64,000 nt of DNA from Blastocatellia bacterium (lineage in GTDB: Bacteria; Acidobacteriota; Blastocatellia; UBA7656). Shown here in pieces: positions 8,780 to 64,000 of this stretch (position 1 is its first letter; each line of letters opens with the position of its first letter). The DNA lies in the NCBI GenBank assembly GCA_963804815.1, contig CAWDRU010000002.1:5187122-5251121 (forward strand), in the 5' to 3' direction. Under the pieces are notes generated by a model, which ran no database searches, had not been told where the DNA came from, and was given only the letters and a program-made list of their open reading frames with translations. The position numbers and the translations under genes are program-made.

Positions 8780-8787
8780 GATACAAG

Positions 8788-8890
8788 GGATGAGGGATGA
8801 GGGATGAAGGATGAAAAAGAGCCTGCCGATAAAACTATAAATGCAGCCCACGATTCATCCCTCATCCCTCATCCTTCATCCTTCATCCTT
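8788..8890. repeat. GGATGAR-heptamer hairpin element, copy A
   Basis: Left arm GGGATGAGGGATGAGGGATGAAGGATGAA (8788-8815). Right arm TTCATCCCTCATCCCTCATCCTTCATCCTTCATCCTT (8855-8890). Lies between dnaB and alr. Confidence 0.8.
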
Positions 8891-10024
8891 CCGGGTCGCC
8901 CCACGTGGGCCGAGATCAATCTGGACAATCTCGTTCATAATTTCCGCCTGATAAAAAAGACGGTCGGCGCGGGCGTTGCCATCATGGCTGCGTTGAAAGC
9001 GGATGCTTATGGTCACGGCGCTGTCAGTTGCGCGCTCGCGCTTGAAGGCGAAGGCGCGGACTGGTTCGGAGTCGCGCTGCCCGAAGAAGGATTAAAGCTC
9101 CGCGATGCGGGCGTCACGCGGCCCGTGCTTTGTCTCGGCGGGTTTTGGGAAGGGCAGGAAGATACGGTCATCGCTCGTAGTCTTACGCCCGTATTGTTTC
9201 GGCTCGACCTCCTCGAACGCTTCAACAGCGCGGCGCGCGCGGCAGGCGTGACGGCTGATTATCATCTCAAGATAGACACGGGGATGAGGCGGCTTGGCGT
9301 GCTTTACGAAGAGCTTGAAGAGTTTCTTGCTGGTGCGGCAGGGTTTGAAAACGTCAGGCTCGATGGCTTGATGACACATTTTGCGGCGGCTGATGATCCG
9401 GAGAAAGCCGAGTTCACGCGCCATCAAATCACGCTTTTTGAAAGCGCCGTTCAAACAGTGCGCAACCAGGGGTACAACCCGACCTGGATTCACGAAGCCA
9501 ACAGCGCGGCAATACTCGCTTATGAGCAGGCGCACGGAAATCTGATCAGACCCGGCGGCCTGCTTTACGGTGTGTGGCGCGACGCGACCATCCCGACAGC
9601 CGCGCCGCTCGACTGGCGACCCGTGCTTTCGCTTCACTCGCGCATAGTGCTTTTGAAAGCGGTCGGGTCGGGCGTTCCAATCGGTTACGGCGGCACGTTT
9701 GTGACAAGCCGCCCCAGCCTTATAGCAACGCTTGCAATCGGATACGAGGACGGGATGAGTCGCGCGCTCTCCAACAAAGGCCGCGTCATCGTGCGCGGCC
9801 AGTTTGCGCCTATCGTAGGCCGCATCAGCATGGACTTAACCATAATTGATGTGACCGATGTTGCGGACGTTCGGACAGGCGACGAGGTTGTGATAATCGG
9901 AACGCAGGCAGCCAGTCACATAAGCGCAGAAGATATAGCTGGAACTCTTGGAACAATATCGTATGAAGTGACCTGCCGCATAAGCGAGCGAGTGCCGAAG
10001 GTAATAGTCGGCAGCAGGCAATAG
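8804..10024 (+). CDS. alr: Alanine racemase
   Basis: RPTWAEINLDNLVHNF, PLP-lysine context AALKADAYGHG, and a C-terminal ISYEV... motif. The only canonical in-frame start before RPTWAEI is ATG 8804, inside the hairpin element. Confidence 0.85.
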   Translation: MKDEKEPADKTINAAHDSSLIPHPSSFILPGRPTWAEINLDNLVHNFRLIKKTVGAGVAIMAALKADAYGHGAVSCALALEGEGADWFGVALPEEGLKLRDAGVTRPVLCLGGFWEGQEDTVIARSLTPVLFRLDLLERFNSAARAAGVTADYHLKIDTGMRRLGVLYEELEEFLAGAAGFENVRLDGLMTHFAAADDPEKAEFTRHQITLFESAVQTVRNQGYNPTWIHEANSAAILAYEQAHGNLIRPGGLLYGVWRDATIPTAAPLDWRPVLSLHSRIVLLKAVGSGVPIGYGGTFVTSRPSLIATLAIGYEDGMSRALSNKGRVIVRGQFAPIVGRISMDLTIIDVTDVADVRTGDEVVIIGTQAASHISAEDIAGTLGTISYEVTCRISERVPKVIVGSRQ

Positions 10025-11440: not shown

Positions 11441-11524
11441 GATGAGGGATGAAGGATGAAGGATGAGAAGAGCGCAAAAGCCGTTACTTTCATCTTCATC
11501 CCTCATCCTTCATCCCTCATCCCT
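11441..11524. repeat. GGATGAR-heptamer hairpin element, copy B
   Basis: Left arm GATGAGGGATGAAGGATGAAGGATGAGA (11441-11468). Right arm TTTCATCTTCATCCCTCATCCTTCATCCCTCATCCC (11488-11524). Lies between two co-directional genes. Confidence 0.8.
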
Positions 11525-37384: not shown

Positions 37385-37460
37385 GGATGAAGGATGAAGG
37401 ATGAATAGAAAATCATGTTTTCCGTTCATCCTTCACCCCTCACCCCTCATCCTTCATCCT
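37384..37460. repeat. GGATGAR-heptamer hairpin element, copy C
   Basis: Left arm GGGATGAAGGATGAAGGATGAAT (37384-37406). Right arm TTCATCCTTCACCCCTCACCCCTCATCCTTCATCCTT (37425-37460). Starts at the last base of the upstream gene's stop codon (TAG 37382-37384). Confidence 0.8.
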
Positions 37461-37468
37461 TATATTTT

Positions 37469-46780: not shown

Positions 46781-46820
46781 TCAGGTGCAGTTCAGCAAAA
46801 CAAACAAGGTTCTCCGCAGC

Positions 46821-47030
46821 GCGCCAGCCGATCTTACATGCTGCACAGATGACTTTAGCAGTGCGCCAGATCGGTTTAGCAGCGCGCAGGCTGACTTCAG
46901 CAATGCGCCAGATCAATTTAGCAGCGCGACGAATGACCCCGGCCCCGTGCCAGCGCGCTTTAACAATGCGCCAGCCGGGTTTAACAGCCGTACAGATGAC
47001 TATAACAGCGGTACAGATGGTTTCAGCAGG
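46821..47030. repeat. 10 x 21-bp degenerate tandem repeat array
   Basis: In-phase units: GCGCCAGCCGATCTTACATGC, TGCACAGATGACTTTAGCAGT, GCGCCAGATCGGTTTAGCAGC, GCGCAGGCTGACTTCAGCAAT, GCGCCAGATCAATTTAGCAGC, and so on to GGTACAGATGGTTTCAGCAGG. Confidence 0.8.
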
Positions 47031-47244
47031 CATACAAACCGTAGAAAAATCAACAGTTGCCCGATTTCGAGCGCGAGCCTGAGGCTCGCTCCATAGCTTA
47101 AAAGGAGGAAGCATAAGCTGACGGCGGCGCGAGCATTTCTGGTTGATGCCACTATCCGAGTCACGTACTCAGATAGTGTCTCCATGCACGCTCCTATGGT
47201 ATCTCGGTCAGTCATTTGAGCTAAACGCTAAAGAAAATCAATAA

Positions 47245-59483: not shown

Positions 59484-62396
59484 TTACTGTGTCGAAACGG
59501 CGGTGACGCGCACGTTATCGAGATAGAAGCCTTCAAACTTATTGCGCTTCACATCTGCTGAAGATGTTATGAAGGTGAAGCTGAAATATGCCCGCTTCCT
59601 GCCGATATATTGAAGGTCAACTTTCGCCGGGCGAAACGCCGCGTCTGTGTTCGGTCGCACGTCGAACGCCAGCGGAAGCGTAGGCTCGTCCGGGCCAGTC
59701 GAGGCTCCGCTAAACGGAAAATTTCTGACCGTCAGGCTCATCAAATCGCTTGGCGTTTCGAGTCCGCTGAAGTAGTAATCAAACTCAAGCTGCGGTTTTG
59801 CCATGTTTTGCAAGTCTATGACGGGCGAGTAAGCCACGCCTGAGCTACCGGCTTTCGTGTAAGACTTGCGATCATTCGAGCCTTTTTTCTTTGAGAAGTA
59901 GAGCGAATGAATTCCGCCCGCCGCCCGCCGCTTCGTCAAATGCCAGTAGCCCTGCAACAGCCATTCCGGCGCATCCTGCTCGAAGTCCATCGAGTAAAGC
60001 GTGATGCGGCGGCCCGCCACCACGCGCATTTCAGTTGTTTCAAACGCGCCCGATTCGTTGCGCTCGTTCGCGTAGCTGATGACGAACTCGTCGCCCGGTT
60101 GAGCCTGTATGCCTGCGCCCGGCCCGCCGTCGGCCAGCAGGCTGAATGTGTTCGTGAAGCGGCCCGGAATGCTTTGCGGAAGATTTAATATTGTGTCCGC
60201 GCCTGTGCGCGAATTCCTGATATGCACATCAATTGAAGGCGCGGACAGCAGGTCGCGATCAACGACAACGATTGCGATCTGCTCGCCAATCACTATGGGA
60301 GAGCCCGGCCTGTCATTGATCACAATTTCGCCTGCTGAAACTTCGGGTGGCATCTCGTAGCTTTCAATCGCAGAAATTCTGTATCCGGTGCGAACAGATG
60401 ACAGAGAAGTCGCAGCGGTCTTGCCCAGACCGCGACGAGCGAACGCTCGCCATATTAAATCCTGATTCGCGCCGTTATTGGTTGTTCGGTCGGCAAGCAA
60501 TATCGCGTCGCGCGCGTCTATAAAGGTCGGAACAATCGGCGTAACTTTCAATCCGTTGATGACGAGTCGCTCGGCTGCCTGTCGTCCCGCGTCGAATCCA
60601 TAACGCTCGATAAACGACTGCCGCATCTCCCAAAGCATCGTGCACCAGACGGTTCCCTGCGCGTGAACTTCCGAGTTGGCTTGTATGTCGGCAAACGTGA
60701 GCGGGTCTGTGTCCATTCTGGTGCTGTAGGGATAGGCTCGCACGCCGCGCGCGCGCTGAGTGATGTAGCTTCCAGTCGTGACTGATGCGTCGAGGGGTTT
60801 GTCGCTGCCCGCGAGAAAAGACATGGCGAAAAAGTCGGACCAGCCTTCGCCCATACCGCTGCCCTGATTCGACCGCAGCCCGATTGTATTGTCCGTTCCC
60901 GCCAGTCGCGTCGAGACGCCGTGCGTGTATTCGTGAATTATCACGCTCGCGTCGTAGGAACTGTCGAGTTCTACGGCCTGCCCGTTTACGGTCTGGTTCC
61001 ACAGAAGCATCGCAAGCAGGGGCGGCGTACCCTCAAGGGTCGGGGTGAAGTAGGCGTTATTACGAACAAGCTGGTTTGTTTTCGATGGATTGATGTCAGC
61101 CCCGCGCAACGTATCTGCCCGCACAGGGTCCCCTCCCGCGCCTTTGCCGAAATTGTCAGCCTGAAAGTTGCGCGACAGTTCGTTGAAGCCGAGCGCGTAA
61201 AAGCGGTCGTGCGCGACGTTGACCCAGTAAAAGAGATTTGCAGCCGAAGCTTCGCCCGAACTTAATGGAGAATGTCCCAATGTAAGATCGAGCGCAAAAT
61301 CGAAATTGCCGTCGGCGTTCGCCTGTACGATATTACCGCCGCTTAGAGTTGGATTTAGAAAGACTCGCGCGTTATTGCCTTCTGTGCGGTTCGCGCCAAC
61401 CCAGCCTTGCGGCGAAGCGGTCTGGTCTCCGGCAAACGATATCATCTCTCGGTCGCTCAGGGCAGGGCTCTCTTTTGCAAAGACTCTTCCCTGCGGCCCG
61501 TCCACGGCAAGCGTGAGCGAGTCGCGTCTAAGCGCTTCGCCCGTCTTTGCGTCTATCAGTATCAGGTAGGAATCAAGCGCAGTAGGCACGCCGTAGAGCA
61601 GGACTTGAAAGGCAAGCCTCACATCATCGCGCGTGATCGGGTAATAAACCAGACTCGCCTCCGAGCGGCTATCCACTTCATCAGACGAAAAGACGACGCG
61701 CTCGCGCGCAGGCAACGATTCCCTTGTGGCCGTGAGCGGAGCCGCGAGCCGCACCCCGCAAATTTGAGCCGCCCGCGAAAGCGCCTGTTCCGCAGTCATC
61801 AAAGGCGACGGCGCGGGCGCTCGATGTTCGATCTGCGGAATGAAGCTACCGGATACCGAAAGAACGCGGCCCTCGCGGTCGAGTATAAACAGCATTTCAG
61901 AATCGAAGACTCGAATTCGATTCACCCTTTGTTCGAGCGCGAGCCGGGTCAGTCCCTCCCGCTCGTCGATTGTATGAGCCGAGACGCGGGAAGAATCGAT
62001 CTGATTCCGGCTTGCGGCAAACAGAGCGCGGTTGTCTCGAATAAAGCGATGGGCGATTGTCACAGCCGTATCGTTTGACCGGGGCGTAAGCGGAGTTGCG
62101 AGCGAGAGCAGCGCGTGAGGCAGGTCCATCTCGTCATTCCATCTGAGAATGGCTTTATCATTCAAAGCCAGCGCGCGTTGCTTCTGTTCGACGTTTGAAA
62201 CCTCAATAGGGCGCGCGCGCAGTTGCCGAGCGTCGAAATCGGGCAACGGTTCAAACTCTTTTGTAACCCCGACTTCATTTGAAGACGCGGGCAGTAATAC
62301 CTGCGCCGCAATCGGAAACTGCGAAACGAATACAAAAATAGTTATGAAGAGAAAAATGCTGTAGCGGCTGCTGGAACTGAATGAATTGAAGAACAC
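59484..62396 (-). CDS. Secreted M36 (fungalysin-like) zinc metalloprotease with propeptide and C-terminal extension
   Basis: Signal-like N-terminus, VIIHEYTHGVSTRL (HExxH), and GEGWSDFFA, characteristic of M36. Long C-terminal non-catalytic domains. Confidence 0.8.
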   Translation of the reverse strand: MFFNSFSSSSRYSIFLFITIFVFVSQFPIAAQVLLPASSNEVGVTKEFEPLPDFDARQLRARPIEVSNVEQKQRALALNDKAILRWNDEMDLPHALLSLATPLTPRSNDTAVTIAHRFIRDNRALFAASRNQIDSSRVSAHTIDEREGLTRLALEQRVNRIRVFDSEMLFILDREGRVLSVSGSFIPQIEHRAPAPSPLMTAEQALSRAAQICGVRLAAPLTATRESLPARERVVFSSDEVDSRSEASLVYYPITRDDVRLAFQVLLYGVPTALDSYLILIDAKTGEALRRDSLTLAVDGPQGRVFAKESPALSDREMISFAGDQTASPQGWVGANRTEGNNARVFLNPTLSGGNIVQANADGNFDFALDLTLGHSPLSSGEASAANLFYWVNVAHDRFYALGFNELSRNFQADNFGKGAGGDPVRADTLRGADINPSKTNQLVRNNAYFTPTLEGTPPLLAMLLWNQTVNGQAVELDSSYDASVIIHEYTHGVSTRLAGTDNTIGLRSNQGSGMGEGWSDFFAMSFLAGSDKPLDASVTTGSYITQRARGVRAYPYSTRMDTDPLTFADIQANSEVHAQGTVWCTMLWEMRQSFIERYGFDAGRQAAERLVINGLKVTPIVPTFIDARDAILLADRTTNNGANQDLIWRAFARRGLGKTAATSLSSVRTGYRISAIESYEMPPEVSAGEIVINDRPGSPIVIGEQIAIVVVDRDLLSAPSIDVHIRNSRTGADTILNLPQSIPGRFTNTFSLLADGGPGAGIQAQPGDEFVISYANERNESGAFETTEMRVVAGRRITLYSMDFEQDAPEWLLQGYWHLTKRRAAGGIHSLYFSKKKGSNDRKSYTKAGSSGVAYSPVIDLQNMAKPQLEFDYYFSGLETPSDLMSLTVRNFPFSGASTGPDEPTLPLAFDVRPNTDAAFRPAKVDLQYIGRKRAYFSFTFITSSADVKRNKFEGFYLDNVRVTAVSTQ

Positions 62397-62636
62397 CGAA
62401 ACACCTCTTTCAACAACTCTCCCGTCAGTCGCCGGGAGATGCTCAACCCTTTTATGCTCGTTTTATATAAAGTCTGAATGGCCGATAAATTATATCAGAG
62501 TCCGGCTGGAAGGTAATCTAAAATGGACAACCAGGGCTATTGCAAAGTAAATGTAGCGGTGATGGCGCAGTATGCGCTTCGCGCGGCGCGGGTAAGCCCA
62601 CGGCCCGGATGGCTGAAACCTTCGCCTTTGACTATG

Positions 62637-62985
62637 GAAATCTCAACGAAGCAGTTCTGATCTGCAACGAAGCAGTTCTGATCTCCGATGATGCAGATCA
62701 GAACTCAAACGTTTGAGTTCTGATCCTCAATAATTACAGATCGGAACTCAAACATTTGAGTTCTGAACCTCAATAGTTATAGATCGGAGCTCAAACTTTT
62801 GAGTTCTGAACCTCAACGAAGCAGCTCCGAATCTCCAACATTGGAGATCAGAACTGCGACGAAGCAGTTCTGAACCTCAATAGTTATAGATCGGAACTCA
62901 AACATTTGAGTTCGGAATCTCAACGAAGCAGTTCTGATCTGCAATATTGGAGATCAGAGCCTCACCGATGAAGCTCTGATCTCCA
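62637..62985. repeat. Array of about 16 phased (21-22 bp) copies of AGTTCTGATC / GATCAGAACT-like motifs in alternating orientation
   Basis: Includes a perfect 30-bp palindrome GATCAGAACTCAAACGTTTGAGTTCTGATC (62696-62725). GAACTCAAACATTTGAGTTC recurs, as do GATCTCCAACATTGGAGATC and CAGAACTGCGACGAAGCAGTTCTG. 11 GATC sites. No ORF. Confidence 0.8.
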
Positions 62986-63027
62986 AACGCTAAATGATGC
63001 TGTGCATCATCCTTAGAATCTCCTTAC

Positions 63028-64000
63028 TTATTCGAGGGCGTACAATGTTCCGGTTGATCCGAAGTTGGTGGCGAAATAGATCGCGCCATCGCCGATGGCC
63101 GCCGAAGCGATCACTCTGCCGTCGGCTTGAAATTTCCAAAGTTCCTCTCCCGTCCGTGCATCCACAGCATAAAAAGGGCGCGGCGTGGGCGTATCCTGTA
63201 AATTGACTACTCCGAAATAAACCACCCCGCCCGCTACGATTGGATCGGCCATCACCGCCGCTTCCGCCTTGAACTTCCACAGCAACTCGCCTGTCGTGCT
63301 GTTGAGCGCGTGCAGATACTGGTCCTGGTTTCCTATATAAACGACGCCGTTGGCTACAGCCGGGCGAGACCAGCCGGAAGCGCCGCCTTGATAGCTCCAA
63401 ACGACATCGCGCGTCTCGATGTTTATTCCGTAGAGGCGGCCATCGTTGCTTGCGATGTACAGCAGACCCTCGCTTATGGCAATGCCATTCGCCCACGCGA
63501 TTGAGGCAGGTCGCTGGATTCGCCATCTCTCCTGCCCCGTCTCGCTGTCCACTGCCAGCAGATTGCTCTGATTTGATGCGGAGTCAAGCGAAGATACATA
63601 AACGATGCCGTTATCATAAACCGGAGGCGTGTCTGAATCCCCGATATCGAGCTTCCATCTCTTTTTGCCTGTGCTTGTGTTTACGGCGTACAGATTGTTA
63701 TCAAAACAACAGAAATAGATTGTAGAGCCGACGACCAGAGGACCGGGCAGGGCAAGGTCTTTGGTCTTGAACTTCCACAGTTTCTCTCCTGTTTGAGCGT
63801 TCAGCGCGTAAAGGCGTTTGTACTGCGCGACGTAAACCACGCCCTCGGCGACAGCCACGGAAGAGAAGAGCGGCGTCGCGGGTTTGGCTTTAAATGACCA
63901 GATGGTGCTCCCTGTCGCGCTGTCGATTGCCGCAAGCCGACCGTTACTGCTCATCAGATAAATGATACCGTTGGCAAATACCGGCGGGGCATGAGTAATC
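63028..64000 (-). CDS. PQQ-like beta-propeller repeat protein (BamB-like fold); 5' end outside the window
   Basis: Repeated ...G.VY.....G.LYA.....G...W.F... blades (LYALNAQTGEKLWKF, LYAVNTSTGKKRWKL, LLAVDSETGQERWRI, LYGINIETRDVVWSY, LHALNSTTGELLWKF, FYAVDARTGEELWKF). The frame stays open to position 64000. Confidence 0.8.
   Translation of the reverse strand, partial: ITHAPPVFANGIIYLMSSNGRLAAIDSATGSTIWSFKAKPATPLFSSVAVAEGVVYVAQYKRLYALNAQTGEKLWKFKTKDLALPGPLVVGSTIYFCCFDNNLYAVNTSTGKKRWKLDIGDSDTPPVYDNGIVYVSSLDSASNQSNLLAVDSETGQERWRIQRPASIAWANGIAISEGLLYIASNDGRLYGINIETRDVVWSYQGGASGWSRPAVANGVVYIGNQDQYLHALNSTTGELLWKFKAEAAVMADPIVAGGVVYFGVVNLQDTPTPRPFYAVDARTGEELWKFQADGRVIASAAIGDGAIYFATNFGSTGTLYALE

Follow-up and report, generated by a model that had tools for sequence, protein, structure and literature searches.

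A gene-less copy of a 21-bp repeat array next to an M36 protease gene in a Blastocatellia genome, related to arrays that follow genes of a small protein family

The closest described counterpart of the array reported here is sopC of the F plasmid, a row of 12 repeats of 43 bp that each contain an inverted repeat, located directly behind sopB. Other parallels of a protein paired with an array are ParR-parC of R1 and pSK41 and the omega-protein heptad arrays of pSM19035. Plasmid iterons and their Rep initiators are represented by P1 incA/incC, R6K, RK2 and pPS10. Extragenic palindromes have been grouped into REP super-families (PMC3733652), and a survey of guide-RNA arrays (CRISPR, TIGR and VIPR) lists arrays with periods of 60-79, 18 and 5 nt but no class of 21 nt (bioRxiv 10.64898/2026.10.21.760802). 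No paper on 21-bp arrays in Acidobacteria was found in the literature. The fam4-type 21-bp array defined below is an undescribed class.

The window is the whole 64,000-nucleotide stretch of the Blastocatellia genome that was analyzed, and the target array occupies its positions 62637-62985 (no strand assigned). It is 349 bp of non-coding DNA made of about 16 units of 21-22 bp, each with one 10-mer in either orientation (AGTTCTGATC or GATCAGAACT; half-sites GAGTTC/GAACTC). The first-pass annotation had counted about 16 phased inverted 10-mers, and this number holds: 14 copies have at most two mismatches (8 forward, 6 reverse), and two more are degenerate (AGCTCCGAAT at 62823 and AGTTCGGAAT at 62909). 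The start-to-start spacing of the 10-mers is 21 bp for forward-forward, 20 bp for reverse-forward and 22-23 bp for forward-reverse pairs, which we read as the expectation if whole 21-bp units (5 nt, 10-mer, 6 nt) can point either way. The perfect 30-bp palindrome noted previously (GATCAGAACTCAAAC/GTTTGAGTTCTGATC; 62696-62725, unstranded) is present and arises where a reverse unit meets a forward one. Tandem Repeats Finder (TRF), which had been proposed for defining the units, returned periods of 21, 22, 43, 86, 107 and 150 bp, with higher-order identity of up to 90-91%. A higher-order duplication spans 62759-62958 (unstranded; 107-bp period at 90% matches, 43-bp units at 91%), and the 90%-alike internal blocks are a sign of recent block-wise expansion of the array.

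The G+C content of the target array is 42.7%, against 53.4% for the genome. The excess of GATC that had been pointed out is real (11 sites versus 1.72 expected from the genome-wide GATC density); it does not represent 11 independent events because GATC belongs to the repeated 10-mer. D12-class adenine methyltransferase genes occur in the genome. The array had been described as free of open reading frames, and only trivial ones of 43 and 58 aa cross it. The view that it is not a CRISPR array is borne out as well. CRISPR was taken to mean 23-50-bp repeats with unique spacers of similar length and cas genes nearby, whereas the 10-mer cores of the target are separated by linkers of 10-13 nt that are of only four to five kinds, and the real CRISPR array of this genome lies at C2:6577117-6584871. 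A search of the target array against Rfam gave no match reaching the gathering score, with only generic microRNA hairpin models below threshold.

Both genes flanking the target array are on the minus strand. On one side lies the 3' part of a PQQ beta-propeller gene (63028-64000, minus strand; PF13360/PF01011; 434 aa in the genome), whose stop codon at 63028 is separated from the array by a 42-bp spacer (62986-63027, minus strand) with a 7-bp hairpin, ATGATGC-TGT-GCATCAT, at about 62995-63011. A scan for consensus promoters and terminators around the array found none, hence no consensus terminator lies between the PQQ gene and the array. By eye, the PQQ gene looks like the last gene of an ECF-sigma / anti-sigma / PQQ operon. 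The block spans C2:5250149-5254235 (minus strand); a 719-aa zf-HC2/FecR-like anti-sigma gene is overlapped at its stop by the PQQ gene and also overlaps a gene for a 209-aa ECF sigma factor, the anti-sigma and sigma calls having been made by eye. Gene calls outside the window are open reading frame calls made in this analysis. The ECF-sigma / anti-sigma / PQQ block is absent from both same-genus genomes, and with the PQQ gene missing there the target array sits at a synteny break. On the other side follow a unique spacer of 109 bp (62528-62636, unstranded), which is not alignable to the same-genus genome and holds no remnant of an Acido-Lenti-1 doublet or a small-protein gene, then an upstream block conserved in the same-genus genome (62397-62527, minus strand; L002 4417-4545), which is likely the seat of the M36 promoter, and the gene of a 970-aa M36 (fungalysin) metallopeptidase (59484-62396, minus strand; PF02128, E = 1.8e-97).

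The DNA of the target array was absent from all 30 relatives in which it was sought, and blastn against its own genome found no other copy. A genome-wide search for the 10-mer, one of the checks suggested at the outset, showed that the array is not a common dispersed repeat: outside the target the 10-mer occurs at chance frequency, the target is its sole cluster, and the genome has no second site for the inverted 10-mer pair. Elsewhere, the pattern GATCRGAACT-N8-14-AGTTCYGAWC was met as isolated single sites only, 70 in metagenomes, two in viral contigs and 35 in GTDB representative genomes, the last number being close to the chance expectation of about 30 that we estimate. The nearest Acido-Lenti-1 doublet is 51.6 kb away, and the flank of the array on the M36 side (left) aligned to this element with a score of 19-20, compared with 17 +/- 2.2 for shuffled sequences, i.e. 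no remnant was detected. No transposase remnant was found beside the array, nor, by tblastn, a remnant of a fam4 or other small-protein gene.

Tandem-heptamer hairpins occur in the window at 8786-8891, 11441-11524 and 37385-37461, for example (AGGGATG)x4 facing (TTCATCC)x5, and nonamers of the same style, CGCAGAGGA x3 facing TCTCTGCG x3, lie at L002 4558-4641 upstream of the same-genus M36 gene; these facing-repeat hairpins differ in style from the arrays and may be terminators. Two D12 methyltransferase copies on the 666-kb contig C1 (4305-4976, minus strand, and 661419-662090, plus strand) are arranged mirror-symmetrically about 4.3 kb from the ends, and a second homologous pair is located near 14.5 kb and 650.3 kb. 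These mirror pairs could be long terminal inverted repeats of a linear replicon or an assembly artefact.

The period of the target array is common in this genome. Self-similarity at a lag of 21 bp was detected in 32 regions of the 8.6-Mb genome, compared with none at lags of 19, 20, 22 or 23 bp. Removal of coding repeats left 33 non-coding arrays, to which one found later was added (about 34 in total). They are 170-375 bp long, have a G+C content of 31-57%, and contain 8-14 units of exactly 21 bp each; the units hold a palindromic or invertible core, and inversions that keep the register are frequent. The arrays fall into 13 blastn clusters scattered over the chromosome. In our reading of the open reading frame map, roughly two thirds start within about 130 bp past a stop codon, and convergent genes flank about ten. 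About ten arrays are upstream of a gene from one of three families of small helical proteins (fam1-fam3). All eight multi-copy clusters include at least one gene-linked copy (p about 0.007 by simulation, 0.046 under a stricter count), where the gene-linked modules are paralogs, so that counts across modules are not independent.

Between 15 and 17 of the 33 arrays lie within about 300 bp of a palindromic doublet of about 250 bp that matches Acido-Lenti-1 (RF01687), a motif with 146 hits genome-wide. Comparison of an empty array end, TTTACATTAAAGTAAT (C2:139100 and C2:585700), with the filled end at C2:4847978 suggests that the doublet inserted with a TACATTA duplication, and hence that doublets may target array edges. 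Doublets at C2:4847978-4848240 and about 100 other loci, none of them in the window, carry CGTGAATTCGACATAA as terminal inverted repeats. Tandem repeats of about 75 bp adjoin two family-A arrays (C2:139100-140400 and C2:585720-587000) and give rise to spurious open reading frames with the recurring peptide VSIRYKSRLRFK.

A second 21-bp array is present in the window at 46802-47055 (unstranded). It belongs to another sequence family and shares 88.75% identity over 160 bp with the array at C2:6589105, which lies upstream of the fam2 gene at C2:6589414. It is followed at 47118-47153 by a perfect 36-bp fragment of the fam2 gene and is for that reason considered a decayed copy of the fam2 module, which shows how orphan arrays can arise. 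The target motif had been thought to recur in this second array. The match, CAGATCGG, is single and trivial, yet both arrays do belong to the same architectural class.

The significant relatives of the target are arrays of a fourth family. fam4 comprises proteins of about 157 aa with the motifs MPYQNI...LPFLVNLT...DDTRLAVGGEAM...GLKPVAEQLGERF. Its module consists of the gene, an interval of about 45-190 bp and, on the same strand, 8-16 units of exactly 21 bp with GAACTC/GAGTTC half-sites and CTCAACG-like linkers. The genome encodes four fam4 paralogs, one of them at C2:6037341-6037817, and each of them is followed 70-190 bp downstream by such an array on the same strand. When the target was searched against the 8.6-Mb genome with nhmmer, the only significant non-self matches (E < 0.05) were three of the fam4 arrays (E = 1.9e-6, 0.003 and 0.018). 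The fourth fam4 array (E = 0.12) and a relic of three units at C2:101806-101877 (E = 0.4) scored below significance. Reciprocal searches with fam4 arrays as query recovered the target (E = 3.8e-4 and 0.0023).

The module extends beyond this genome. There are 474 fam4 homologs; the best 120 of these are 65-88% identical and come from Blastocatellia, Pyrinomonadaceae and the gammaproteobacterial symbionts Ca. Thiosymbion (oneisti) and Ca. Kentrum. At all four foreign fam4 loci inspected, in other Acidobacteria and in gammaproteobacterial symbionts, a 21-bp array begins about 45-75 bp past the stop codon. Three of the four foreign arrays share words of 11-13 nt with the target, namely CAGATCGGAACTC and GCAGTTCTGAAC in Kentrum, TCTGATCCTCAA and GAACCTCAACG in array L148, and GAATCTCAACG in array L147. 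The number of distinct 9-mers shared with the target is 8-17 in three of the four and 2 in the Thiosymbion array, whereas non-fam4 arrays in the target's genome share 0-3 and shuffled sequences no more than 6. The word set of the target is confined to about six loci, and the retention of the same half-site words across phyla argues for sequence-specific recognition.

The target thus has the non-coding 21-bp tandem unit of a fam4-type array and is related to such arrays in sequence; unlike them, it does not follow a fam4 gene of the same strand at a distance of up to about 200 bp, the nearest fam4 gene being 109 kb away. Because its upstream neighbor is the PQQ propeller gene and tblastn found no fam4 remnant, it was classified as an orphan. 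Judged from its sequence, the target is a gene-less, lineage-specific copy of the fam4-type array.

Analogous modules are formed by the other three families, with the array upstream of the gene's putative -10 element. fam1 is a 121-aa family with six paralogs, five of which have an array 145-220 bp upstream. In fam2 (about 230 aa) an array is found upstream of two of three paralogs, and in fam3, which combines a helical N-terminus with an FN3 domain, upstream of both. A same-genus genome retains the fam3 gene with its array at the orthologous position, the array being about 75% identical, and a fam2 ortholog of that genome also has an array directly upstream. Homologs of fam1 were found in other Blastocatellia, in a Bacteroidota bin and in a Verrucomicrobium; TRF detected an upstream array with a period of 21 or 63 bp at two of four foreign fam1 loci, and inspection by eye added one degenerate and one weak array at the other two. 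In another same-genus genome the fam3 ortholog (about 85% identical by our estimate) is accompanied by the palindrome AAAGTGAATTCACTTT instead of AAACCGAGTCGGTTT, which indicates that the array sequence turns over rapidly while palindrome and period stay. The arms of these two fam3 arrays read AAGTGAA/TTCACTT at L056 (G002:C149) 1480-1760 and AACCGA/TCGGTT at C2:6085794-6086134, with the 21-bp period kept. In the gene-linked fam1-fam3 arrays a G-U asymmetry favors the gene-antisense strand in 9 of 9 cases, which are not independent modules, but it tracks the G+T skew. Beside a fam2-linked array, C2:6588344-6588871 (minus strand) encodes a Cas4-like PD-(D/E)XK protein with a C-terminal Cys cluster, a few kb from the large CRISPR array mentioned above, whose repeat is GTTTCAATTCCACATTGGTTCGATTCAAGG.

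AlphaFold2 models of fam1 (pLDDT 88.9) and fam4 (pLDDT 86.4) are all-helical, with a helix of about 53 residues and a basic tail. Foldseek searches of both models against the PDB gave no significant match, no recognizable DNA-binding motif was seen in either protein, and neither was assigned to a family in Pfam, PHROG or NCBIfam. Comparison of fam1 with fam4 by hhalign revealed no relationship beyond the basic tail, and jackhmmer found no link between any of the partner families.

The reading we prefer, with a probability of about 0.45, is that fam4 proteins dock in trans on the target, in an arrangement like that of sopB-sopC of the F plasmid. Each 21-bp unit would be one binding site, and the spacing of two helical turns would place all sites on one face of the duplex. 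The fam4 proteins encoded elsewhere in the genome by the four paralogs would coat the array co-operatively as double-stranded DNA, and the coated array, situated between the PQQ operon and the M36 gene, might serve for docking or as an insulator. Sequence-specific sites on one duplex face are favored because the two-turn period is invariant across unrelated sequences, because unit inversion is tolerated, and because half-site words are retained beside a highly conserved protein across phyla. The proposal of the first-pass annotation that the array offers phased sites to a DNA-binding protein accordingly remains the leading model and has gained from the strict genome-wide 21-bp period and the recurrent partner gene; its suggestion of an iteron or plasmid centromere fails for want of rep and par genes. 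Counting against the docking reading are the predicted helical fam4 and fam1 structures, which match no PDB fold, DNA-binding motif or known family, the lack of a fam4 gene beside the target and of a copy in relatives or public collections, and the rapid array turnover seen with the fam3 ortholog of another species.

A role for the target as a dedicated operator, enhancer or 5'-UTR structure of the M36 gene, as first suggested, is very improbable. The array does lie 240 bp upstream of the M36 start codon (62396) and on the same strand. Against this, the M36 ortholog of the same genus, which is 86% identical, shares only the proximal 130 bp: upstream homology ends at window position 62527, 130 bp before the start codon, and beyond it the same-genus locus has a different neighbor and a short nonamer hairpin, and no array. 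TRF likewise detected no array within 1.5 kb on each side of two more distant M36 orthologs (L004 and L005), and the related arrays adjoin unrelated genes. The array is therefore not supported as an M36-linked element, and the alternative of RNA hairpins in the 5' UTR of the protease gene is unlikely because the array is missing from the same-genus M36 locus, from the 30 relatives and from the L004 and L005 flanks. As the secreted M36 protease illustrates, a gene of interest is not necessarily regulated by a striking repeat block beside it. Least probable of all is descent from an integrated plasmid, with the array as what remains of its iteron origin or partition centromere; the 21-22-bp period, the mixed unit orientation and the 43-bp super-period do recall P1 incA iterons and F sopC, but no rep, parA or parB-like gene was recognized by eye in the open reading frame translations within 12 kb on the PQQ side, some 34 such arrays are scattered over the chromosome, and the partner genes encode small helical proteins of no known family.

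Two further explanations carry more weight. The array may act as RNA, namely as a 3' tail transcribed with the preceding gene (fam4 in the full module, the PQQ operon here), with a row of hairpins that stops or protects the transcript, or with fam4 binding RNA. This is rather unlikely on balance, although the position of the fam4 arrays is that of a 3' UTR: they begin 45-190 bp past the stop codon on the same strand at 8 of 8 loci, the interval between the PQQ gene and the target has no consensus terminator, and the prevalence of arrays soon after stop codons or between convergent genes in our reading of the map points the same way. The would-be transcribed strand also folds slightly better in seven of the eight fam4 arrays, by 12 kcal/mol in the target, a weak tendency that fits an RNA role and speaks against the docking reading; half of the folding-energy asymmetries are, however, slight, and the asymmetries track G+T composition, and G-T and A-C mismatches in the palindromes of the target are balanced, hence uninformative. 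Hairpins moreover leave the exact period of 21 unexplained, which over a dozen unrelated sequence families have in common and which is never 19, 20, 22 or 23; half-site words are conserved as sequence and not by covariation; and the fam1-fam3 arrays lie outside the transcript of their gene. Less probable still is inert satellite or selfish DNA without present function. In that case the array would derive from a fam4 module, as a duplicated and now dead piece of it, or would be a hairpin cluster of the REP/BIME kind, and slippage together with template switching at hairpins would have enlarged it at a junction prone to recombination. The target could be a dead copy because it has no adjacent fam4 gene and was found in no relative or public collection, and its restriction to the source genome, its location at a synteny break, the 90% likeness of its internal blocks, the decay of a module into an orphan next to a fam2 remnant at 46.8 kb, and the abutment of 15-17 of 33 arrays on Acido-Lenti-1 doublets all agree with such an origin. 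It is opposed by the strict 21-bp register, retained even through unit inversions, and by the cross-phylum half-site words; the target itself has no neighboring doublet or transposase remnant and is not a high-copy identical repeat.

Beyond the target itself, this genome contains several paralogous pairs of protein and array that differ from one another in array sequence. It is tentatively proposed that fam4 and its array, together with the analogous fam1-fam3 modules, form an undescribed family of protein-array systems that lack an NTPase. Each gene would have one home array, and several orphans would serve as trans landing pads that insulate or organize chromosome regions, the target being such a pad between the ECF-sigma operon and the secreted protease gene. 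If fam4-type proteins do bind the arrays, they would represent a widespread unannotated protein-DNA (or protein-RNA) module in soil Acidobacteria and some symbiotic Gammaproteobacteria, with centromere-like geometry, no motor protein, and multiple pairs of differing array sequence per genome. This would offer a new handle on chromosome organization or transcriptional insulation in a poorly studied phylum.

Compared with the described systems, the target resembles tandem guide-RNA arrays in that periodic non-coding arrays of its class stand beside a conserved partner gene and conserved segments alternate with variable ones in some of the arrays of this genome; it differs in its few, repeated linkers in place of diverse spacers and in a partner that is not nuclease-like. 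With REP/BIME clusters and REPINs it shares extragenic palindromes of alternating orientation that could form hairpins on either strand, and a usual place just 3' of genes or between convergent genes. REPs are high-copy elements with near-identical units and no fixed helical period, whereas the period of the target is strictly 21 bp, its words occur at about six loci and many near-identical dispersed copies are lacking; unlike REPINs with their RAYT transposases, it has no RAYT or Y1 transposase, cognate repeat or Acido-Lenti-1 doublet in its vicinity. Iterons are similar in having 17-22-bp repeats about two helical turns apart, in both orientations in the case of P1 incA, and the GATC-rich sites of the target recall the Dam-dependent RctB sites of Vibrio chromosome 2. 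In contrast to iteron origins, no rep gene (by eye within the same 12 kb on the PQQ side, or among the downstream genes of the window), DnaA boxes or AT-rich unwinding element were seen, and the arrays are dispersed along the chromosome. The arrangement of sopB-sopC differs in that a partition centromere lies beside the genes of its binding protein and of a ParA-type NTPase, while the neighbors of the target are the M36 gene, the PQQ gene and, by eye, the ECF sigma/anti-sigma pair; the arrays are chromosomal and multi-copy (about 34 in 13 blastn clusters), fam4 is a predicted helical protein of 157 aa without similarity to ParB, RHH or any PDB fold, and the target copy lacks an adjacent partner gene, its binding by a partner being putative. 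As in sopB-sopC, short inverted-repeat sites, phased and in tandem, come directly after the fam4 gene. As in sopC and systems of its type, the target has phased tandem repeats with internal inverted repeats, its period corresponds to whole helical turns (21 bp, with a 43-bp period as well), either orientation of the units is tolerated, and the array is AT-richer than its surroundings.
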